Part shown: one piece after another, positions 1,470 to 34,956 of the stretch | Position numbering within the stretch: the first letter of the stretch is position 1 | Layout: every line of letters begins with the position of its first letter | IMG/VR virus record: IMGVR_UViG_3300045988_132224 | Span: 1 to 45,180 of that record | Length of the DNA stretch: 45,180 nucleotides | DNA from: a virus | Direction: 5' to 3' (one strand) | Notes under the pieces: model-generated | The model's input: only the letters and a program-made list of their open reading frames with translations | Told to the model about the DNA's origin: nothing | Databases searched by the model: none | Made by a program: the position numbers and the translations under genes

Positions 1470-2285
1470 TTAGTGCCCCGCTTCCTGGTCTTCCCGTTCA
1501 ATCATGGGAAGAACTCCATGCTTCTTGAGGAGCTGATACAGGAAGAGGCGTCCTTTCTGTGTCCATTCGGTCTGCATCTTACAGTCCGGACGGCCGTCGC
1601 TGTGCTTGAAGTCGAAGGGCTTGCTGTGGGTATAGCCCCGCGCCTGGTATTTCGCGTACAGGAACCATTGTGACCCCATCCGGTAAATGACCCGGAGTTC
1701 ATGGAGCTTCTGGTTCATCGCCTTGGCGCTCATCCCGTAATCTTTCGCAATGGCCGTGGTCGGCACGGTCCCTTTGCTGGAAAGGATGCGGTCGGTATAA
1801 TCGGCTTTCGGCTTCAGTTCACCGATGAGCTGTTTGGCACTGGCCGCTTCCAGTTCGGCACTCTTCCGGGCTTCCCGTTCGAGTTTCAGCTCCGTGGCCA
1901 GCCGGATCAGCGTGTCCGGATTCAACAGCACTTCTTCCACCTTTTCCGGTGTCAGGTAAGCCCCATGCCGGCGGATGGCCGGAAGAACTTCGTCGGCCAG
2001 GACTGCCTGGAACTTCTGAGCTACTTCGTTACTGGCCTTGAATCCCAGCCGGTACACCATGTTTTCCGGCAGGAAATCATTTTCGCCCACTTGTGGTCGA
2101 AAGCCGAAAGACTGTAAATATTCATTGACCCTTGCCCATCTAACAGATTCATACTTAACGCCGTTTTTTGTTTCCACCTTGGTAAAACCAAATCCTCTTG
2201 CTACATCTCCGGCATTCAAATAGGCCGTCCCCGTTTTCGGGTCCAGGTATCCGCGGACGTTGTTGATATTCAAAACTTCGTTCAT
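1470..2285 (-). CDS. Phage antirepressor (ORF6N/Bro-N-like N-terminus, KilA-C-like C-terminus)
   Basis: N-terminus ...AYLNAGDVARGFGF...VRWARVNEYL... and C-terminus ...TTAIAKDYGMSAKAMNQKLHEL...GYTHSK are typical of the Ant/KilAC family. SD AAAGGAGGAG. Confidence 0.75.
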   Translation of the reverse strand: MNEVLNINNVRGYLDPKTGTAYLNAGDVARGFGFTKVETKNGVKYESVRWARVNEYLQSFGFRPQVGENDFLPENMVYRLGFKASNEVAQKFQAVLADEVLPAIRRHGAYLTPEKVEEVLLNPDTLIRLATELKLEREARKSAELEAASAKQLIGELKPKADYTDRILSSKGTVPTTAIAKDYGMSAKAMNQKLHELRVIYRMGSQWFLYAKYQARGYTHSKPFDFKHSDGRPDCKMQTEWTQKGRLFLYQLLKKHGVLPMIEREDQEAGH

Positions 2286-2339
2286 ACGTGTCTCCTCCTT
2301 TACTCCATAAATTGTTCATGTCGCAAGCATTTTCCTATT

Positions 2340-2348
2340 TGCTATAAT
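2340..2348 (+). promoter_or_regulatory. Extended -10 promoter element TGcTATAAT for the second plus-strand moron
   Basis: tgctataat read at 2340-2348. It overlaps the first ATG of ORF 2347, so the true start is further downstream. Confidence 0.5.
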
Positions 2349-2964
2349 GTTTATACATAATGAAAGGATGGTGCTTATTTTGATTATCGATTCTATGACT
2401 ATAGCTTGTTATGGTGCTCTTGTTTCTACCATAGTGGCGGTTATCCAACTGTACACTTTTTTCAAATCAAGAGGATTCTTGTCACTTGATTTAGATCCTA
2501 TGCATGGTTCTTATTACATAAACAGTGACAATTGCCTACAAATTAATTACCAAGGAAAATACTTTTTAATTCTTTCTGTGAAATTAAGTAATAAGTCTTC
2601 TGTTCCTACAACAATTGATGGAATATATCTTTTAAATTCTAATAACAAAAAATTTTATTCATTCAAGGAAATAAAATTAGATCTACCGTTTTATCATGGA
2701 CATACTGTGCCTTTTAATGACAAGTTATTAACTTTTCCCTTAAGGCTGAATCAATATGATTCCATAAAAGGCACTCTAGTTTTCCCGTTGGATAATATCT
2801 ATCAATTAAAAAATGTCAGTCTCAACCAAGAACAAGGCATTACGGTTTATATCGAATCACCTAGAGGTATTTATCCCCATGAAATAACCGTACTTCCTTA
2901 CGTAACTTACATGGAGCATCATCTAAAACGGAATCTCCTTCAGCAATCAAAGAAATTGAAGTAA
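2347..2964 (+). CDS. Hypothetical N-terminally membrane-anchored protein (AT-rich moron); true start probably 2368-2380
   Basis: ORF track. TM helix ACYGALVSTIVAVIQLYTFF is followed by a beta-rich domain. The SD-like GAAAGGATGGTG precedes the TTG at 2380. Confidence 0.6.
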   Translation: MFIHNERMVLILIIDSMTIACYGALVSTIVAVIQLYTFFKSRGFLSLDLDPMHGSYYINSDNCLQINYQGKYFLILSVKLSNKSSVPTTIDGIYLLNSNNKKFYSFKEIKLDLPFYHGHTVPFNDKLLTFPLRLNQYDSIKGTLVFPLDNIYQLKNVSLNQEQGITVYIESPRGIYPHEITVLPYVTYMEHHLKRNLLQQSKKLK

Positions 2965-3061
2965 TTCCATTCAGTTCATCGAGTTCACTCATGTCCATGT
3001 CCTTTACTAGTTGAATAATTTTTTCTCTTCTACATTGTCGGAATTTTTCTTTCTTATTCAT
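2861..3061 (-). CDS. Hypothetical protein downstream of antirepressor 2
   Basis: ORF track; SD GGAGG precedes the ATG at 3061. Its 3' end overlaps the convergent moron by 104 nt. Confidence 0.45.
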   Translation of the reverse strand: MNKKEKFRQCRREKIIQLVKDMDMSELDELNGITSISLIAEGDSVLDDAPCKLRKEVRLFHGDKYL

Positions 3062-3074
3062 GCTACGCGCCTCC

Positions 3075-3878
3075 TTAGTGTCCCGCTTCTTGGTCGTCTT
3101 TTAGTAGTTCAAGAATGTGATGATTCCAGAGAAGTTGATACCCGCTGTGCCCGTTGCCGCGGGTATACGGAACATGCTCGCAGTACGGCTTTCCAATCGC
3201 GGTAGGCACCCAGTCAGTACCCACTTTTTCTTGCAAGCCTTTGCTATTCAGCATGGCGTTGACCCGTTGCGGGCTGGGATTCCCTTTACTGTTCAAGATG
3301 CCCAGTTCTTTGGCAATCATCGTCGGCGTCAGTGTCGACGGGTTAGTTTCTGCCGGGATGAACCGTTTCAGCGGGGTCATATCGACGCCGTAAGCCTTCC
3401 CGACCATCTGCATGGCTGCGGTCATGGCCATTGGCTTCTTGACGCCGAAGGTATCGGCAATCATAGCTGCCGTGTCGGCCGTATCCTTTACCGCTGTCTT
3501 AATCATCCGTGTCCGGTAATGCGGGTTCGGGGTGATCTTGGGGACGGCATATTTGCCGGTTTTTCGTATCGTCGGCAAGACGTCCGACGTGACCCAACGT
3601 TTGAATTGTTTAGCTGTCGGAAGCTTACTGGAGAGAACTAAACTATATAAGCCTGATTCATTGATGAGTGTGGCCTTGCTTTTGTAGTTGGAACCACTCC
3701 CCTGAATCAGGGTACTGGTTTTATCTTCGGGATCTATGTGATTCGCTACAGCATTTTCCGGTTTTGCATAGCCTAGTGCCATTGCCACATCTTTAGCGAC
3801 AAACCATGGATCACCGTCTATCGTTACTGTTCTTACCTGTCCAAATTCTGGACTTTTAAAAATCTGTAATTCGTTCAT
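3075..3878 (-). CDS. Bro-N family antirepressor
   Basis: Classic Bro-N motif FGQVRTVTIDGDPWFVAKDVAMALGY...INESGLYSLVLSSKLPTAKQFKRWVTSDVLP. The C-terminal tail DDQEAGH is shared with antirepressor 1. Confidence 0.8.
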   Translation of the reverse strand: MNELQIFKSPEFGQVRTVTIDGDPWFVAKDVAMALGYAKPENAVANHIDPEDKTSTLIQGSGSNYKSKATLINESGLYSLVLSSKLPTAKQFKRWVTSDVLPTIRKTGKYAVPKITPNPHYRTRMIKTAVKDTADTAAMIADTFGVKKPMAMTAAMQMVGKAYGVDMTPLKRFIPAETNPSTLTPTMIAKELGILNSKGNPSPQRVNAMLNSKGLQEKVGTDWVPTAIGKPYCEHVPYTRGNGHSGYQLLWNHHILELLKDDQEAGH

Positions 3879-3912
3879 TTCTTTTCACTCCTTCGCTAAC
3901 GCGCCCACATCA

Positions 3913-4128
3913 TTAATTACTTGTATTTCCGTCATTTCGTTTCAAAAAATTAAGGTCAATTCCTAAAATATCGGCCAATCTCGATAATACTTTCAAGCTC
4001 GGAGTGTACCGGCCTCTTTCCACATCTGCATAATATGCACGCGAAACACCGACCATCCCAGATAATTCCAATTGAGTTAATCCAGCCTTTTCACGAGCGG
4101 ACTTGAGCACATCTCCAATTTTATTCAC
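3913..4128 (-). CDS. Cro-like XRE-family HTH regulator
   Basis: GLTQLELSGMVGVSRAYYADVERGRYTPS HTH_3 motif. GTG start with SD GGAGGTGG. Transcribed divergently from the repressor. Confidence 0.8.
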   Translation of the reverse strand: MNKIGDVLKSAREKAGLTQLELSGMVGVSRAYYADVERGRYTPSLKVLSRLADILGIDLNFLKRNDGNTSN

Positions 4129-4285
4129 TATACCACCTCCCTTCTTTAATTACTTGTATTTCCGTCTTGCAAAGTAAGTGTACAGTATTTCCGTCATTTT
4201 GTCAATAGTATTTCCGTCATATTTATATTATAATGGTCTCAAAAGACGGAAAAACCGCACAAGGCAAAAATAAGGAGGGATTCTT
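4129..4285. promoter_or_regulatory. Divergent immunity (cro/cI) control region with repeated operator-like motif GTATTTCCGTC
   Basis: Direct copies lie at 4156-4166, 4185-4195 and 4208-4218, with an inverted half-site GACGGAAA at 4244-4251. TATAAT lies at 4229-4234 (+). Confidence 0.6.
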
Positions 4286-4903
4286 ATGAAAAGCATAGGT
4301 GAACGAATTAAAGAAGCGAGAAAATCGGCTGGATTGACACAATTAGAACTGGCTAAAAAAACAGAGCTTTCCCGCTCTTATATTGGCGATATAGAAAAAG
4401 ATAGGTATAACCCCAGTGTATCTACCCTGCAATTAATAGCTACAGCAACAAATACGCCATTGGAAGATTTACTTCCATCAACTAAGACGGTTTCCCCCGC
4501 AGGCCGGGGCGTCCGCATCCCAGTTCTTGGCCGCGTCGTGGCGGGCATCCCTATCGAAGCCGTGGAGGAAATCCTGGACTACGAAGAAATCACCCCGGAG
4601 CTTGCCGCGACTGGCGAATTTTTTGCATTAAAAATCCGCGGTCACTCGATGGAGCCGCGGATGATGGAAGGCGACGTCGTTATTGTCCGCCGGCAGGATG
4701 ACGTAGAGTCAGGAGATATCGCCATCGTTTTGGTCAATGGCAACGAGGCCACCGTGAAACGCGTGAAAAAGCAGGAAGACGGCATCACCCTGATTGCAAC
4801 GAACACGTCTGTATACGAACCGCATTACTACTCCAACAAGGAAATTGAAGAACTCCCGGTCCGTATCCTCGGCAGAGTCGTTGAGCTTCGGGGGAAGATG
4901 TAA
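4286..4903 (+). CDS. CI/LexA-like repressor (XRE HTH plus S24 autopeptidase domain)
   Basis: HTH GLTQLELAKKTELSRSYIGDIEKDRYNPS. Putative cleavage site VVAG. Ser in GHSMEP and Lys in ATVKRV form the S24 dyad. Confidence 0.9.
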   Translation: MKSIGERIKEARKSAGLTQLELAKKTELSRSYIGDIEKDRYNPSVSTLQLIATATNTPLEDLLPSTKTVSPAGRGVRIPVLGRVVAGIPIEAVEEILDYEEITPELAATGEFFALKIRGHSMEPRMMEGDVVIVRRQDDVESGDIAIVLVNGNEATVKRVKKQEDGITLIATNTSVYEPHYYSNKEIEELPVRILGRVVELRGKM

Positions 4904-4925: not shown

Positions 4926-5399
4926 ATGATATTAACTCAACATGAAGCAGACACATTGCGAGAAATAGAAAAATGTTTAGCCAGTCCAACTAGTGTCCGA
5001 CTTCCTCAACGACGAGAAACTAAATTGTATCCACTATGGTATCAATATAATGGCCGGAACAAGGATGATATGACCCTTTCGGCCTTCCGGGGCAATAAAA
5101 ACCCCAAAAAAGTCTCTTTCCGCTTATTATATTCTCAATGTATAATATTGGTAAGGATCGATACCCAGGATCCTACGCCACACACAAATCCAGATGGAAC
5201 AAGAATAGCACCGTTGGAGCCGCATATTCACATTTATAAAGAAGGCTATGGCGATAAATTTGCTTACCCCTTGCCAGAAGAATTTAGTCATACTAATGAT
5301 ATTATTGATTTGTTTATGGATTTCTTAGCATACTCACATGTTATCAACAGGGACCAAGTGCATCTTGTAGAACCGGAGGTGCTTTTTGATGGATACTAA
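4926..5399 (+). CDS. Hypothetical protein with His-rich motif (HTNPDG...PHIHIY), co-transcribed with the repressor
   Basis: This is the distal part of ORF 4794..5399. SD GGAAAGGA precedes the ATG at 4926. It starts 22 nt after the repressor stop with no terminator between them. Confidence 0.65.
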   Translation: MILTQHEADTLREIEKCLASPTSVRLPQRRETKLYPLWYQYNGRNKDDMTLSAFRGNKNPKKVSFRLLYSQCIILVRIDTQDPTPHTNPDGTRIAPLEPHIHIYKEGYGDKFAYPLPEEFSHTNDIIDLFMDFLAYSHVINRDQVHLVEPEVLFDGY

Positions 5400-6165
5400 T
5401 TTCGATTGGATTGCTGAATATTACCAATGGATAAAAAAGAATTTATCTGCCAGACGGTTAAAAAATGGATGGACAGAAATCGGCACACCGTTTATGGACC
5501 GTCATAATGATGGGCTGGTAATCTACGCTAAGAGGGATGGGGACAGCATCACTTTATCTGATGATGGATATATTATTAACGACTTGATTGCTGACGGCGT
5601 TTCCTTACGCGGTTCTAAGCGAGCCGCTTTTTTAAACGGTCTCCTTTTTTCTTATGGCGTCGAAAACCAAGACAATGAAATGGTGATGCGTACTACCCCA
5701 AAAAACTATGCTGTAAGTATGCATATGTTTATTCAAGCTATGCTTGCCGTAAATGATATGTTTATGTTAAACAATGCTACAATAAAAACCATTTTCTTGG
5801 ATGATGTCGCTAATTATTTTGACCAACAAGGCCTTATCTATACTCCAAACTTTTTGGCTAAAGGCAGTACAGGCCTGGAATTTAATTTCAACTTCCAGAT
5901 TGCTGGACGAACGTCAGAAATACTTATCAATTCATTTAATTCTATCAACCGAGGGAATCTTGCGGCGTTCCTATTTGATTGGCAGGATATACGTGATGAA
6001 CGACAGAAAAGGTCCCGTAAGAAAGTGAAAGGCTTAGCAATCATTAACGACGAAAAGGAAGTTGACAGAAAATATTTGGATGCATTGATCGCTAAAGGTA
6101 CAGACTATATTCTTTTTTCCGAACGATTGAAGCCTGAAAATCTCCAAAAATTAACGGCGGCCTAA
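5389..6165 (+). CDS. Hypothetical protein; from memory resembles DUF1828 (N) plus DUF1829 (C) family proteins
   Basis: SD GGAGGTG lies 7 nt before the ATG at 5389. It overlaps the upstream stop by 11 nt, suggesting translational coupling. Motif GWTEIGTPFMDRHNDGLVIYAKRDGDSITLSDDGY. Confidence 0.6.
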   Translation: MDTNFDWIAEYYQWIKKNLSARRLKNGWTEIGTPFMDRHNDGLVIYAKRDGDSITLSDDGYIINDLIADGVSLRGSKRAAFLNGLLFSYGVENQDNEMVMRTTPKNYAVSMHMFIQAMLAVNDMFMLNNATIKTIFLDDVANYFDQQGLIYTPNFLAKGSTGLEFNFNFQIAGRTSEILINSFNSINRGNLAAFLFDWQDIRDERQKRSRKKVKGLAIINDEKEVDRKYLDALIAKGTDYILFSERLKPENLQKLTAA

Positions 6166-6218: not shown

Positions 6219-6294
6219 CTCCCGCCTCTATAGGTGGGAGTACGTTCACTTGTTTCAGAAATAAAAAAAGATCCTGAACATATTATTCAGGATC
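6219..6294. terminator. Two hairpins ending the repressor-cargo operon
   Basis: ctcccgcc/ggtgggag stem at 6219-6240. Perfect 9-bp stem gatcctgaa/ttcaggatc at 6270-6294, flanked by an A-run upstream. Confidence 0.45.
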
Positions 6295-6508
6295 TCAAAA
6301 ATAATATTGCAAAAAAATAAGCCACCCCCAGGGGCAAAGGAATTCTAAGCGTAATCGCCTACTCCCATTCGGGAACCCAGCCTTATCCTTCACAAGTTGA
6401 CTTTATAGTCATTATATCAAAAAAACGGGAAAATGCAACTATTTATTTTATGACACCTGTTCTTGACCAAACAAGATAAAAATAGAAAAAGTACCGGCAC
6501 CGTGCTGC

Positions 6509-6739
6509 GACGTCGTCATCGTCAAAAAGCAGCCAACCGTAGACTCTGGTGACATTGCCATCGTCCTCGTCAACGGCAACGACGCCACGGTCAAAGAGAT
6601 AAAAGAAAGCCCGGCCGGCATCACTCTCATCGGCCATAACGTCGCCGTATATACGCCCCACTTCTACTCCAACCATGACATAGAGTCTCTTCCCATCCAG
6701 ATAATCGGCAAAGTGGTGGAGATGCGGCGGAAGTTTTAG
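6509..6739 (+). pseudogene. 5'-truncated remnant of a second S24-type repressor (C-terminal 76 codons only, no start codon)
   Basis: It translates to DVVIVKKQPTVDSGDIAIVLVNGNDATVKEIKESPAGITLIGHNVAVYTPHFYSNHDIESLPIQIIGKVVEMRRKF*. This is collinear with the CI C-terminus DVVIVRRQDDVESGDIAIVLVNGNEATVKRV...VVELRGKM*. An in-frame TGA lies at 6464, and there is no ATG/GTG/TTG after it. Confidence 0.8.
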
Positions 6740-6749
6740 AAAGGAAGTA

Positions 6750-7520
6750 ATGAAAGATATGAGCCATCCTTTACCTAAATCCCATATACTTGTAAAACGC
6801 TATAGAAAATTTGCAAATTTTCTCAAAATGACGAGTAACAAAAATTTCCAGCGATTTATGTTGTGGATTCAACACTATATACAGCTGAAGTTTAATGAAA
6901 AAGAATTCAAATCAACCTTTTTACCAAAATATGAAGAAGGACAAATTATTTTTGTTGATTTCGGCTGCGGTATATCTCATGAATTTAGCTATCCTCATTA
7001 TGCAGTTGTTTTAAACTTGCATGATCGCAAGAAAAGCAACTTGCTTACTGTAGTACCTATGACATCAAAAAAGCCCAAACACAAAATATTAAAGCCATGG
7101 GAACATGAATTACAGTGTACAGTTCCTGATTTATTAGCTATGAAAGCCATGTCTGAATTTGACTTACAAAAACCTGAGTACAAGGATTTGCGAAATGATG
7201 TTATCCAGTTATTTTTACAAAATACCACTAAAGAGGAATTTGACAAAAGGCATCATGAGCTTATCGAAAGAGGCGTACAGGCTATATACAATAACAACTA
7301 TGACATTATGAGTTTTAGAGAAAAAATGAAGCAAGGGAGTATCGTTGAAACAAATCAAATCCGCACAATCAGTAAGTCCAGGATAATATTCCCAACGAAA
7401 AAATTACATCCACTTTATGATATTAAAGTTGATAAGCAAGACTTGTCTATCATTAAGTGGAAAATAATGAAAAATATTGTCATAGATATTATTGACAAAC
7501 CTGATGAAGAGCGTATATAA
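6750..7520 (+). CDS. Oversized MazF/PemK-fold toxin-like protein (N-terminal extension and ~95-aa insertion)
   Basis: GQIIFVDFGCGISHEFSYPHYAVVLN...LLTVVPMTSKK and GSIVETNQIRTISKSRI match the two conserved MazF/PemK/EndoA blocks (compare [25 protein letters not shown] and DSVILLEQIRTIDKQRL). Confidence 0.65.
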   Translation: MKDMSHPLPKSHILVKRYRKFANFLKMTSNKNFQRFMLWIQHYIQLKFNEKEFKSTFLPKYEEGQIIFVDFGCGISHEFSYPHYAVVLNLHDRKKSNLLTVVPMTSKKPKHKILKPWEHELQCTVPDLLAMKAMSEFDLQKPEYKDLRNDVIQLFLQNTTKEEFDKRHHELIERGVQAIYNNNYDIMSFREKMKQGSIVETNQIRTISKSRIIFPTKKLHPLYDIKVDKQDLSIIKWKIMKNIVIDIIDKPDEERI

Positions 7521-7590
7521 TGGAACTACAAATTGGGCTGTGAATCCCAAAAAATATTTTCCATTATTGTCTCCATTCGGAGGCAAAAAG

Positions 7591-7619
7591 AAAGGCGCTC
7601 TATGCAGAGCGCCTTTTTT
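7591..7619 (+). terminator. Rho-independent terminator after the MazF-like gene
   Basis: aaaggcgctc-tatgca-gagcgccttt stem-loop followed by a T-run. Confidence 0.8.
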
Positions 7620-7644
7620 GATTGCGTATTTGTCTATAAAAAAA

Positions 7645-7706
7645 TCCCGGTACCGTGCTGGAACACGATACCGGGATATGCCGCAGGTGCTGGAACACCT
7701 ACGGCG
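7645..7706. other. Two tandem hairpins with identical CTGGAA loops
   Basis: tcccggtaccgtg-CTGGAA-cacgataccggga at 7645-7676 (13-bp stem, 1 mismatch). ccgcaggtg-CTGGAA-cacctacgg at 7681-7704. The first is followed by a T-run on the minus strand, so it can act as a minus-strand terminator. Confidence 0.55.
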
Positions 7707-7794
7707 CTGTAAATCTACACACACGACTACGGGGGCTGATTTACGCTATCAGTATATCACATCAGCCTCCCTTTACGCAAAGGAGGTTATTTTT

Positions 7795-8874
7795 ATGACC
7801 GATTTAACCTATCACTTCTCTTTCAGAGAAAAGGATCGCGGCTGGCAGGTCATCTTATCGTACAAAGACCAGGCGGGACGCTGGAAGCAGAAGTCACGCC
7901 AGGGTCTGGCCACCAAAAAGGCTGCCAAAGCCGCCGGCGAAAAGCTCCTGGTCGACGTACTCGATGCAATGAAGAGCCAGCCAATTGCGCCGGAGCTCGT
8001 CGACATCTCCCTGGCAGAATTTGCAGAATACGTTTTCCGCAGCCGCAACCTGACGTATAACTCCGTCCTGGCCTATCGCTACGCGCTGAAGAATTACGGC
8101 CCGAAGCTTCTGGCCATGCCGGTCCGTAAAATCACCTATCTAGACATCCAGCAGGCGATGAGCGCCTGGCAATGTGCTGATGCCAGCTACCAGCTCTATG
8201 TAACCTGCCTCAAGATGGTCCTGTCCTACGCTGTCGAGCCCTACCATCTCCGGCAGGATAACCCAGCCATCCACTTGAAGCCCAGGAAGCTGAACCGCCG
8301 GCACAAGATCCGGGCGCTGACGCAGACCGAATTTGACCAGCTTATGGGAAGCATGGAGACCCGTCCGATGAAATACTATGCCATGTGTGCCATTGCTGGA
8401 TATACCGGAATGCGAGTAGGCGAAATTATGGCCCTCACTTGGGATGACGTAGATCTAAAAGAGCGACAGATTAGTGTTACCAAGCAATACGGCCGTATTG
8501 CCCATAAGAAGCGCGGGATCATGAACATCAAAAACAAGGCCGCCGGGCATCGTGTCATCCCCATTCCCGTCAAACTGCAGCAAATCCTATTGGCCTATCG
8601 CCGTTCCGAGCCGCGGCAAATAAATGGGCAGCTATTCCCGCATAGCCAGTTCTATAAATCACTAGATGGATACATAAAGAAGATTGTCCCTGATGCATCT
8701 ATCCATAGTTTACGTCACACCTATGCAACGATGCTGCTGGCCAATGGCACCGACATCAAGACCGTGGCAGCGCTCCTCGGCGACACGGTTACCACGGTTT
8801 TAAATGTCTACGTGGATTATACAGACGACATGAGACGGAAAGCCGCGCAGTCAATTGAAAAAATTTTTGCGTAG
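7795..8874 (+). CDS. int: Tyrosine integrase (lysogeny integrase)
   Basis: SD AAAGGAGG precedes the ATG at 7795, and the upstream part of ORF 7492 is discounted. Motifs AGYTGMRVGEI, HSLRHTYATML and LNVYVDY match the R...HxxR...Y pattern. It sits next to the repressor module and putative attP. Confidence 0.9.
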   Translation: MTDLTYHFSFREKDRGWQVILSYKDQAGRWKQKSRQGLATKKAAKAAGEKLLVDVLDAMKSQPIAPELVDISLAEFAEYVFRSRNLTYNSVLAYRYALKNYGPKLLAMPVRKITYLDIQQAMSAWQCADASYQLYVTCLKMVLSYAVEPYHLRQDNPAIHLKPRKLNRRHKIRALTQTEFDQLMGSMETRPMKYYAMCAIAGYTGMRVGEIMALTWDDVDLKERQISVTKQYGRIAHKKRGIMNIKNKAAGHRVIPIPVKLQQILLAYRRSEPRQINGQLFPHSQFYKSLDGYIKKIVPDASIHSLRHTYATMLLANGTDIKTVAALLGDTVTTVLNVYVDYTDDMRRKAAQSIEKIFA

Positions 8875-11059: not shown

Positions 11060-12094
11060 GTGATACTATTGAAACTACCAAATGGATTCGGCACGGTCTA
11101 CAAAATGCAAGGGAATCGTCGCCGTCCTTACGTGGCAAAGAAGACAATACAAGGGAAACAAAAGCCTATCGGCTATTTTGAAACATTCGAGGAGGCCATG
11201 GCCTGTCTCGTCGAGTATAATCGCGACCCTGCCTTGCTGAGTCCGAGCAAGACAACTTTTGCCGAGGTCTACGCGCTTTGGAAGGCCCAGCACTTCCCGC
11301 GCCTCCGAAGTGATTCTGCGCGCATCAGCTACAAAAATTCGTATCGTCATTGCTCCCGCCTCCATCAAATGATTTTCGTGGACATCCGGCTCGGCCACCT
11401 CGACCATGTCATTGACGATGTGCGTCATGCAGGCTGCGGATACCCAACGCAGAAGAAAGTCCGCTCTCTGCTCGAGCAGCTTTACAAGTACGCAATACGA
11501 TATGACCTGGTCGTCAAAGATTATGCCCGATATCTCGATATTGACCGACCTCGTAAACTGCACAAGAAAAAGCCGTTTACCGTCCGTCAGCGCAACCGCT
11601 TGTGGCGTGGCGTTGATGATGTGCCCGAAGCACGTCATGTCCTCATGCTCATATACTCGGGATGCCGTGTCGGTGAGTACCGTCATATCCGGAAGACTGA
11701 CGTCAAGCTGCGCCGTCGCGTCATCGTGATCCGGCACAGCAAGACCGATGCCGGTGCGGGCAGGCTTATCCCCATCCCTCGCAAGCTCATGCCATGGTAC
11801 GAGGAGGCTATGCAGACTCCCGGACTCTACATCTGCGGACGCGCAGATGGCAGCCGTCACAGCTACGACTCTTTCCGCCGCGCTATCTTTGACCCTGTCA
11901 TGCACCACTTCGGCATGTCGCATACGCCGCATGAGTGCCGCCACACGCTTGCCAGTATGCTTGACTCTGCCGATGTCAACCGCACCGTCATCAAGCTCAT
12001 CCTCGGACACAGCCTCGAAGGTGTGACCGAACGTGTCTACACGCATAAGAGCATCCGCGAATTGCTGAGAGCCATCGACAAGGTCTGTACTTGA
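11060..12094 (+). CDS. Second tyrosine recombinase (Arm-type N-terminal DNA-binding domain); candidate tail-fibre invertase
   Basis: LPNGFGTVYKMQGNRRRPYVAKK arm-binding-like N-terminus. Catalytic-pattern motifs SGCRVGEY, HECRHTLAS, LGHS and ERVYTH. The likely start is the TTG at 11069. Confidence 0.85.
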   Translation: MILLKLPNGFGTVYKMQGNRRRPYVAKKTIQGKQKPIGYFETFEEAMACLVEYNRDPALLSPSKTTFAEVYALWKAQHFPRLRSDSARISYKNSYRHCSRLHQMIFVDIRLGHLDHVIDDVRHAGCGYPTQKKVRSLLEQLYKYAIRYDLVVKDYARYLDIDRPRKLHKKKPFTVRQRNRLWRGVDDVPEARHVLMLIYSGCRVGEYRHIRKTDVKLRRRVIVIRHSKTDAGAGRLIPIPRKLMPWYEEAMQTPGLYICGRADGSRHSYDSFRRAIFDPVMHHFGMSHTPHECRHTLASMLDSADVNRTVIKLILGHSLEGVTERVYTHKSIRELLRAIDKVCT

Positions 12095-34691: not shown

Positions 34692-34780
34692 TGGCGGAAA
34701 GTGTGGGATTCGAACCCACGGTGCGTTGCCGCATCACTAGTTTTCAAGACTAGCTCCTTAAACCACTCGGACACCTTTCC
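34692..34780 (-). tRNA. tRNA-Ser (anticodon UGA), CCA encoded
   Basis: Hand-folded: acceptor GGAAAGG/ACTTTCC, anticodon arm CTAGT-CTTGAAA-ACTAG, long variable arm, T-arm GTGGG-TTCGAAT-CCCAC. Confidence 0.85.
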
Positions 34781-34785
34781 ATGGC

Positions 34786-34861
34786 TGGCAGGAACGGAAG
34801 GACTCGAACCTTCAACAAATGGTTTTGGAGACCACTACTCTACCAGTTGAGCTACGTCCCT
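34786..34861 (-). tRNA. tRNA-Trp (anticodon CCA), CCA encoded
   Basis: Hand-folded: anticodon arm GTGGT-CTCCAAA-ACCAT, T-arm GAAGG-TTCGAGT-CCTTC. Confidence 0.85.
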
Positions 34862-34882
34862 ATGATATGCCCCAAAAGGGGA

Positions 34883-34956
34883 GGGCGGAGGCTGGACTCG
34901 AACCAGCGACAATGGGGCTTGCAAACCCTTGGCTCTACCAACTGAGCTACTCCGCC
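34883..34956 (-). tRNA. tRNA-like gene with irregular anticodon arm (UGC or GCA anticodon possible), no encoded CCA
   Basis: The acceptor (GGCGGAG/CTCCGCC), D-arm and T-arm (GCTGG-TTCGAGT-CCAGC) are perfect. The segment CAAGGGTTTGCAAGCCCCATTGTC is 1 nt too long and does not form a 5-bp stem with a 7-nt loop. Confidence 0.6.

Follow-up and report, generated by a model that had tools for sequence, protein, structure and literature searches.

The 45,180-nucleotide (nt) window, by which we mean the whole stretch of viral DNA analysed here (IMG/VR virus record IMGVR_UViG_3300045988_132224, positions 1 to 45,180), is a complete temperate phage genome of about 45.1 kb, and contigs of 45,116 bp carry the identical gene order. 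On its lysogeny side, the plus-strand open reading frame (ORF) at 6750..7520 opens with ATG and encodes a 256-amino-acid (aa) protein that matches the Pfam family PF02452 (PemK_toxin) and the phage protein family PHROG 1412; we call this gene, the last of the repressor-side operon, and its relatives MazF-long. A consensus promoter overlaps its final codons and is followed by a predicted small RNA that ends in an intrinsic terminator, beyond which lies the phage integrase gene (int). The protein family is already known, having been catalogued as PHROG 1412 and as 'PemK-like'; the promoter-RNA-terminator unit at the 3′ end of the gene is a new observation. In our survey of the literature, made in full texts and with subscription-journal papers mostly outside its scope, functional work on the long form did not turn up, nor did any mention of an RNA partner.

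The MazF-long protein and its family

A preliminary description of this DNA had pointed out the ORF and quoted two MazF/PemK sequence blocks from its product, both of which are present. The match to PF02452 scores 37.2 bits against a cut-off of 23.1 (E 3.8e-9) and falls in two stretches parted by an insertion; PemK_toxin is the only family matched in Pfam, with no match to ToxN/AbiQ, CptN or TenpN. The insertion splits the family profile, so that neither the profile nor the protein sequence retrieved any MazF chain from the Protein Data Bank (PDB), and a fold search was used in their place. An AlphaFold2 (AF2) model built from 24 homologues (predicted local distance difference test, pLDDT, 81.4; predicted template modeling score, pTM, 0.71) has two N-terminal helices (residues 10-52), four strands (65-120), four helices (125-192), three strands (197-214) and a C-terminal helix (229-248). 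When this model was compared with the PDB using Foldseek, the top 50 matches were all MazF, with template modeling (TM) scores normalised to the target of 0.66-0.80 and a probability of 1.0, in agreement with the fold first proposed for the protein, and in BFVD the structural neighbours were 'PemK-like protein' entries only. As modelled, the 256-aa protein contains the MazF SH3-like β-barrel.

Along the chain, a basic N-terminal helical hairpin (aa 1-58) precedes the first half of the barrel (aa 59-123, with E78, H83, P103, T105 and S106), which is separated by a four-helix insertion (aa 124-193) from the second half (aa 194-228, with K209 and R211) and the C-terminal helix (aa 229-248). The insertion had been put at roughly 95 aa; by the AF2 model it measures about 70 aa. 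The mean net charge is +7.4 for the hairpin, which is strongly basic, and -1.9 for the insertion, which is mildly acidic and among the less conserved segments of the protein. Judged by this composition, the hairpin is plausibly an RNA-binding surface, and the charge and the variability of the insertion lend no support to the earlier suggestion that it acts as a built-in antitoxin.

Residues were mapped by hhalign onto canonical MazF/Kid sequences, an alignment whose probability is low (14%) and which was therefore used for the residue map only; it agrees with a by-eye alignment to Escherichia coli MazF (EcMazF). In this map, E78 corresponds to E20 of Bacillus subtilis MazF (BsMazF) and E24 of EcMazF, T105 to the catalytic T48/T52, and H83 to the catalytic R25/R29. 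Among 31 members at 17-30% identity the invariant columns are a Gly, E78, H83, P103, S106, K209 and I212, and the active-site-like constellation of E, H, P-x-[T/S]-S and K-x-R-I is kept throughout; across the family E78 is invariant and the position of T105 is held by Thr or Ser. From its conservation, this E/H/(T,S) site looks like a maintained catalytic centre in which His replaces Arg.

Although the protein had been considered an oversized orphan, the long form is a large established family. The match to PHROG 1412 runs from residues 15-244 to profile positions 12-235 of 237 (E 9.9e-39); the label carried by this family, 'antitoxin mazE-like', is misleading, since it conflicts with the fold, and annotations of the homologues vary among 'antitoxin mazE-like', 'PemK/MazF family toxin' and 'hypothetical'. 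An exhaustive search of 50%-identity representatives returned 661 clusters at E <= 1e-3 and 199 at E <= 1e-10, nearly all of the 661 being 230-320 aa long and aligning end to end, while the 100 close clusters are all 245-256 aa and PF02452 is found in all 100 close homologues. Judged from these alignments, a protein of this superfamily, which numbers at least 661 clusters, normally has both the N-terminal hairpin and the four-helix insertion. Relatives are encoded on at least 385 IMG/VR contigs and, at 27-31% identity, in 104 phage records from Staphylococcus and Streptococcus, phage 77 ORF017 and P954 gp02 among them; three of these phage records were inspected, and each shows the gene flanked by repressor and integrase genes, all on one strand. 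A clade at 54% identity comes from Veillonella, and members occur in prophages of Staphylococcus, Streptococcus and Veillonella as well as in defence islands. PADLOC gave the MazF-long protein no match to any defence protein model.

The promoter, predicted RNA and terminator at the 3′ end of the gene

A perfect sigma-70/sigma-A promoter (TTGACA-18 nt-TATAAT, a 12/12 match) occupies 7492..7521 on the plus strand, with its -35 element inside the ORF codons Ile-Asp-Lys and the stop codon TAA (7518-7520) inside its -10 element. The promoter is likewise 12/12 in all 14 related IMG/VR loci (L004-L017), where the position of the stop ranges from inside the spacer to inside the -10 element, and only 14 perfect promoters were found on the two strands of 179 kb of loci. 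The Asp codon within the -35 element is GAC in 7/7 lineages, compared with 23% GAC among the other Asp codons of these genes, which indicates selection on the DNA; overlap with the -35 element also accounts for the near-invariant 'ID' in an otherwise variable, low-confidence tail of the protein.

Downstream of this promoter, the predicted small RNA (7528..7620, +, about 93 nt) forms three hairpins: H1 (7533-7550), with a TTGGG/CCCAA stem and an 8-nt loop; H2 (7567-7586), whose sequence varies with the pairing kept; and the stem of the intrinsic terminator, which together with its T-run spans 7588-7619. The predicted fold has a minimum free energy of -37 kcal/mol (z -5.9). H1 is invariant, loop included, while the proteins diverge to about 52%; H2 carries compensatory changes (G:C to A:U; U:A, C:G or U:G), the terminator stem has three compensatory pairs among relatives, and nine distinct RNA variants each fold to the same shape. 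Covariation in H2 was assessed by stem-anchored comparison, the MAFFT alignment being unusable for counting. The motif recurs in 20 viral and 35 metagenome contigs. The preliminary description had placed a terminator downstream of the gene, and a hairpin with a T-run is indeed there; this terminator belongs to a separate small transcription unit, whose perfect promoter lies within the last codons of the ORF. Rfam has no family matching the window RNA at E <= 1, with DUF2693, ceN115 and sraL as weak hits far below threshold, and ARAGORN found no tRNA or transfer-messenger RNA in the spacer; we considered H1 as a mimic of a tRNA anticodon arm and dropped the idea on its loop length, which is 7 or 8 nt.

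An equivalent unit is found downstream of all 61 distinct evaluable members of the family. Twenty distinct relatives (27-100% identity; P954, Javan178 and Javan433 among them) were compared, and in all 20 a terminator follows a promoter that spans the stop codon or sits just past it, the RNAs being 70-134 nt long. A wider viral sample comprised 41 distinct evaluable genes; every one has its terminator 53-134 nt away from the predicted start, and the promoter matches at least 10 of 12 positions in 27 of them. Two controls show that the unit is very rare behind other ORFs: 179 kb of sequence contained 198 ORFs of 120 aa or more, and the unit follows 12, all of which are MazF-long, and in a second comparison it was present in 13 of 17 MazF-long genes versus 4 of 79 others (Fisher p 1e-9). 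Together, the conservation, the controls and the codon bias exclude a chance promoter. The RNAs of different clades are unrelated in sequence, each protein clade having its own, and RNA sequence tracks protein clade, a correspondence that physical linkage confounds. All of them are structured and have a common architecture, namely a small GC hairpin about 5 nt from the start, one or two more hairpins and the terminator (z -1.9 to -7.6), and two tandem repeats of 27-32 nt, a length near that of type III repeats, are present in 7 of 22 clades. Directly after the toxin-linked RNA of one distant member, we also noted a skipping-rope RNA (L052 3429-3499, +; Rfam RF02924, 49.5 bits).

Genomic settings of the gene and its RNA

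In two pairs of loci (L021/L033 and L023/L038) a gene of a distant clade replaced the window-type gene and came with its own promoter, RNA and terminator; the same replacements left behind the last codons of the old gene and the old RNA, and L023 and L033 have two complete promoter-RNA-terminator units in series. In Veillonella, stand-alone copies of gene and RNA occur without integrase or repressor: beside a tRNA and followed by a gene on the other strand (L041); next to gap-pgk-tpi, flanked by AbiLi/AbiLii and PD-T4-7-like genes (L042, L043); and beside a type II restriction-modification (R-M) system, with an S24 remnant (L040). Where recombinase genes do follow, they are unrelated to one another, with two tyrosine types and, in toxin-less loci, a serine type. 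The RNA unit belongs with the MazF-long gene and not with the integrase, and the stand-alone loci and tandem units led us to reject its reading as an integrase leader. Relatives also have further genes that look like toxin-antitoxin or defence components clustered about this slot: HicB-like and YgiT-type zinc-ribbon genes, identified by eye, precede MazF-long in L039 (297-1148).

The association is one-way, in that the gene is always accompanied by the RNA unit while the RNA often occurs without the gene. An H1-type RNA with a good promoter follows a lipoprotein gene in L030, the MazF-long gene being absent (there, zinc-ribbon, Abi-like and Fic-like genes, again identified by eye, lie after the RNA at 2110-4879). 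H1-type RNAs also follow a mere 3′ stub of the gene (L036, L136, L142, L158), follow unrelated genes and precede a large serine recombinase (L132, L159), or stand at island edges (L135, L145, L148), and in the Veillonella gap-pgk island with other cargo (L151, L157, L160) the last six codons of MazF-long can still be read in the promoter spacer. For the approximately 30 evaluable metagenome hits of H1, a full gene was adjacent in 13, a stub or a replaced cassette in 7, and no gene in about 10, two of which look like chance matches. One-way dependence of this kind is the classic signature expected of a toxin and its antitoxin.

No protein antitoxin emerged from the same loci. The upstream gene is an S24 remnant in the window, L004 and L040, an ImmA/IrrE-type M78 peptidase behind a helix-turn-helix (HTH) repressor in L005-L017, and a full HTH-S24 repressor abutting the start codon in Javan433; it is replaced by unrelated genes in P954, by a tRNA in L041, and by nothing on that strand in L042 and L043, and HIRAN is among these varied neighbours. 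When small ORFs within 350 nt were compared all-against-all in 11 loci, no candidate was common to the loci, and the stand-alone loci have none. The remark that no small antitoxin ORF flanks the gene extends to its homologues, which lack a canonical upstream antitoxin, and as far as gene content can tell, a MazE/PemI-type protein antitoxin is not conserved in the family. Reading frames through the RNA are interrupted by the difference between 7- and 8-nt loops and by differences in stem length. A micro-peptide from the 59-aa ORF with a TTG start at 7533-7712 was also rejected: it has no ribosome-binding site (RBS), crosses terminators, and has a frame broken by the loop and stem length differences of relatives.

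The gene string that ends with MazF-long is headed by an intact CI/LexA-type repressor gene (4286..4903, +; Pfam HTH_3 and Peptidase_S24), and the same layout is seen in contigs that encode the exact protein. Behind the repressor, a DUF6978 gene (4926-5399, +) and a DUF1828+DUF1829 gene (5386-6165, +), both assigned by Pfam, form the PADLOC candidate defence pair PDC-M24A/B (4926..6165; E 6e-46 and 4e-91). Next comes the start-less Peptidase_S24 C-terminal remnant (6482..6740, +; Pfam S24 positions 53-116, E 6e-10), already recognised in the preliminary description as a repressor remnant, which stops 10 nt before the MazF-long ATG. It is the leftover of an older repressor gene and the footprint of a cassette exchange. 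In a 98%-identical relative (L004), only the last ~85 nt of the remnant are kept behind a different cargo gene, and PDC-M24A/B is replaced by a 548-aa homologue of PD-Lambda-1 (L004 3215-4861; E 1e-156; DUF4041 and T5orf172). The remnant itself lies at ~4900-4990 of L004, where homology to the window sets in ~85 nt ahead of the ATG, and a Veillonella genome has one like it (L040 5503-5868). The ancestral layout was probably a repressor directly followed by MazF-long, as in Javan433, with cargo swaps breaking inside the 3′ end of the repressor gene, and the slot between the repressor and the S24 remnant looks like a hotspot for the exchange of defence cargo inside the repressor operon. The AT-rich composition that had been noted also holds, with 31-35% GC in the MazF-long gene versus 47-56% in its flanks. 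In the non-coding DNA after PDC-M24B we observed minus-strand terminator-like hairpins at 6268-6296 and 6322-6361, into which no minus-strand gene reads; they were probably brought in with the cargo cassette.

The tyrosine integrase gene (7795..8874, +; 359 aa; Pfam Phage_integrase and Arm-DNA-bind_4) marks the other side of the RNA unit. In integrated copies the host DHquinase_I gene begins about 220 nt past the int stop codon, placing the prophage end beyond int; a phage attachment site (attP) in the spacer between the MazF-like gene and int was rejected, as these copies put the host junction after int. The spacer before int also holds a terminator-like hairpin with a T-run on the minus strand (7644..7677), found by scanning and separate from the toxin-RNA unit, at which a short transcript of that strand, antisense to the integrase leader, likely ends. 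A structurally equivalent hairpin is present in L007-type loci, and in Javan178 the Rfam family Spy779816 (RF02589) matches the minus strand at the equivalent spot (corresponding site L002 4386-4472, -). Differential RNA sequencing of Streptococcus pyogenes found antisense small RNAs (sRNAs) of 81-91 nt upstream of int in four prophages, where they were proposed to silence int (PMC6431027), and antisense sRNAs of this known type explain the window hairpin. Such prophage sRNAs (RF02589 Spy779816; SP119_SR034/071/086/106) resemble the window in occupying the spacer between the last lysogeny gene and int; unlike the toxin-linked RNA, they are a separate element on the opposite strand, and the window has no sequence match to RF02589. 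A minus-strand promoter that could give rise to the putative antisense transcript was not detected in the window at 9/12 or better. Also in this spacer are an inverted repeat at about 7725-7760, just upstream of the int RBS, and an island of ~35 nt (~7700-7735) that differs wholly between the window and L004 with nearly identical flanks and falls inside the putative minus-strand transcript. Elsewhere in the window, three phage tRNA genes are clustered at 34692-34956 (-; Ser-TGA, Trp-CCA, Cys-GCA), and a second Phage_integrase-family gene (~11198-12094, +; 298 aa in the called genes of L124/L125), which runs antiparallel to the lysis and tail genes around it, could encode a recombinase of the invertase type.

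Interpretation and comparison with known systems

The account that we favour, tentatively and with somewhat less than even confidence, is that the locus is a module of a MazF-long toxin and an RNA antitoxin, type III-like with inverted gene order, which serves in abortive infection or addiction. The last gene of the repressor-side lysogenic operon would yield, in modest amounts, an endoribonuclease that is toxic or arrests growth. The RNA would be in large excess, being transcribed from its own strong promoter, and would also form the 3′ end of each toxin mRNA. By binding the protein, it would keep it inactive in the manner of ToxI acting on ToxN in type III systems; if the supply of RNA collapsed, the labile RNA would decay and the freed toxin would stop the cell. 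Possible triggers are phage-induced transcription shut-off and loss of the element, and the outcome would be abortive infection and/or addiction. Neutralisation of protein by RNA, as in type III systems, is the best-supported mode; type III toxins share the MazF/Kid fold, their antitoxic RNAs being 34-36-nt repeats (PMC5086642). The RNA is a better candidate for the missing partner than the insertion. A role in defence or addiction is what we infer from context: the abortive-infection or exclusion function suggested earlier for a lysogen-expressed gene fits its place in the operon and its defence settings, including the PADLOC neighbours, although that suggestion had missed the sRNA partner.

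Several observations weigh against this toxin-antitoxin account. In about one third of the metagenome occurrences, promoter and H1 are intact at sites with no toxin gene or just a few codons of it, and the one-way dependence agrees just as well with an RNA that has its own function or serves as the conserved right-hand flank of a cargo-exchange slot. The promoter reaches only 8-9/12 in 14 of the 41 distant instances, and the family instances counted above are not phylogenetically independent. In a repeat test, the window RNA had no significant sequence repeat (11/20, p 0.75). Its arrangement also departs from known type III systems, in which the RNA is upstream, the promoter is shared and the terminator lies between RNA and toxin gene; here the gene comes first, then the RNA under a separate 12/12 promoter, then the terminator. 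The position of the catalytic Arg is His in every member (Staphylococcus, Streptococcus, metagenomic and 17-30% identity clades), and a staphylococcal PemK that is non-canonical at the catalytic Arg and Thr (PemK-Sa6) was inactive until both were restored (PMC11915791). Expression of the RNA, toxicity, ribonuclease activity with His in place of Arg, and binding between RNA and protein are each something that we infer.

The strongest rival, which we consider unlikely though worth serious attention, is a single-protein abortive-infection or exclusion toxin whose MazF core is held inactive by its own hairpin and/or insertion until a phage cue frees it, the RNA being an independent prophage sRNA that happens to share the site; this is close to what the preliminary description had in mind. 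Both extra segments are kept across the whole superfamily, the gene sits in defence islands and lysogeny modules, and the RNA may be independent of the protein, as the H1 type has an intact promoter in many contexts that lack the toxin. This rival leaves unexplained why every clade, down to 27% identity, has its own promoter-RNA-terminator at the same spot and why replacing cassettes bring their own units; moreover, the insertion is weakly charged and poorly conserved, unlike the acidic tails of MazE, and a hairpin of +7.4 suits nucleic-acid binding better than the masking of an active site. Quite unlikely, and clearly less probable than a self-contained toxin, is a protein that is no toxin but a sequence-specific RNA-binding or RNA-processing factor of the lysogeny circuit, acting on the sRNA, on the antisense RNA upstream of int or on an integrase leader, for example; regulation would then have co-opted the MazF fold. 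The usual place of the gene directly before int, by an antisense sRNA proposed to silence int, would suit such a factor, and host MazF is said to modulate the lysis-lysogeny decision of arbitrium phages. The change from Arg to His points the same way, given the precedent of the inactive, non-toxic PemK with non-canonical catalytic residues (PMC11915791). Against a lysogeny factor, gene and RNA persist without integrase or repressor in Veillonella islands, where they are flanked by AbiL, PD-T4-7-like and R-M genes, the downstream recombinases are mutually unrelated, and the conserved E/H/(T,S) site has the look of a maintained catalytic centre.

Other readings would take the promoter away from the toxin or supply a more familiar antitoxin. 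That the promoter is the integrase promoter, with the hairpins as its leader or attenuator, or that an operon terminator merely adjoins a fortuitous promoter match, appears very improbable. In its favour, int mostly comes next on the same strand in prophages, and antisense sRNAs upstream of int imply sense transcription there. However, stand-alone loci have no downstream gene on the same strand (in L041 the next gene is on the opposite one), L023 and L033 carry two units in series, the same unit stands ahead of unrelated recombinases, a strong terminator directly follows and the attachment site is beyond int; a fortuitous match is ruled out by the conservation, controls and codon bias described above. 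We give hardly any credence to a canonical type II MazEF-like pair with an overlooked protein antitoxin or to a type I-like RNA that pairs with the toxin mRNA. The PF02452 family is typically type II, but no flanking small ORF is conserved in 11 loci and the frames through the RNA are broken. As for RNA pairing, the duplex of the RNA with its cognate translation-initiation region was no better than that of shuffled RNA in 8 of 10 loci, which makes a type I-like mode unlikely, and the RNA is co-directional with the gene and does not overlap it.

Extending the toxin-antitoxin account from the window to the family, we think it possible, with slightly less confidence than for the locus itself, that long-form PemK/MazF proteins and their 3′ sRNAs are a widespread, undescribed class of protein toxin and RNA antitoxin, built on a type II toxin family, with the reverse of the type III gene order and the RNA promoter in the last toxin codons, and that in Firmicutes and Negativicutes they act in abortive infection or addiction from within lysogeny modules and defence islands. 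Should the RNA prove to be the antidote, MazF/PemK, the best-known toxin family, would have a whole branch under the control of RNA instead of a MazE-type protein, linking type II and type III. It would account for hundreds of 'orphan PemK-like' or mislabelled 'MazE-like' genes in prophages of Staphylococcus, Streptococcus and gut bacteria, and the known defence or addiction modules would gain a compact one of two parts that escapes current tools (PADLOC gave no hit). Whatever the role of the RNA, the conservation of a consensus promoter inside the last codons of a protein gene stands, as does the defence-cargo exchange slot between a repressor-gene remnant and the RNA, and both the embedded promoter and the slot are useful markers for annotating prophage lysogeny modules.

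Among the closest known counterparts are the phage homologues in PHROG 1412 (Staphylococcus phage 77 ORF017 and P954 gp02, Streptococcus Javan433_0068), which have full-length homology, the slot between repressor and integrase, and the downstream promoter, RNA and terminator all as in the window; their proteins are 27-31% identical to that of the window and their RNAs unrelated in sequence. With type II MazF/PemK/Kid proteins (PF02452; B. subtilis MazF/YdcE, 1NE8 and 4MDX; Staphylococcus aureus MazF, 4MZP), the window protein shares the family, the barrel, the Glu, the Thr/Ser and the QIRTISKxRI block. By comparison with these toxins, it is more than twice the size, has the basic hairpin and the ~70-aa insertion, and carries His for Arg, and its gene has a promoter-driven sRNA at the 3′ end and no MazE/PemI-type antitoxin gene. 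On the RNA side, the DUF3800-I to -XI, drum and skipping-rope RNAs offer a precedent of many unrelated structures, each tied to one protein family, that have a 3′ terminator and are not 5′ untranslated regions (Weinberg et al. 2017, PMC5737381). These protein-associated orphan RNAs go with another protein family and are other RNAs than that of the window, which is without an Rfam match.

Similar to the type III systems (ToxIN, AbiQ/antiQ, CptIN and TenpIN), the window has a MazF/Kid-fold toxin beside a predicted non-coding RNA bounded by a Rho-independent terminator. The likeness extends to an RNA that tracks the toxin clade, to 27-32-nt repeats in about one third of MazF-long clades, to the expected excess of RNA and to the context of defence and mobile elements. 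In contrast, the window toxin is in the PemK family and not in ToxN, CptN or TenpN, and its RNA consists of two dissimilar hairpins with no clear repeats. Since the locus departs from the type III definition in gene order, promoter sharing and toxin family, we describe it as one that may work like a type III system, not as a member of that class.

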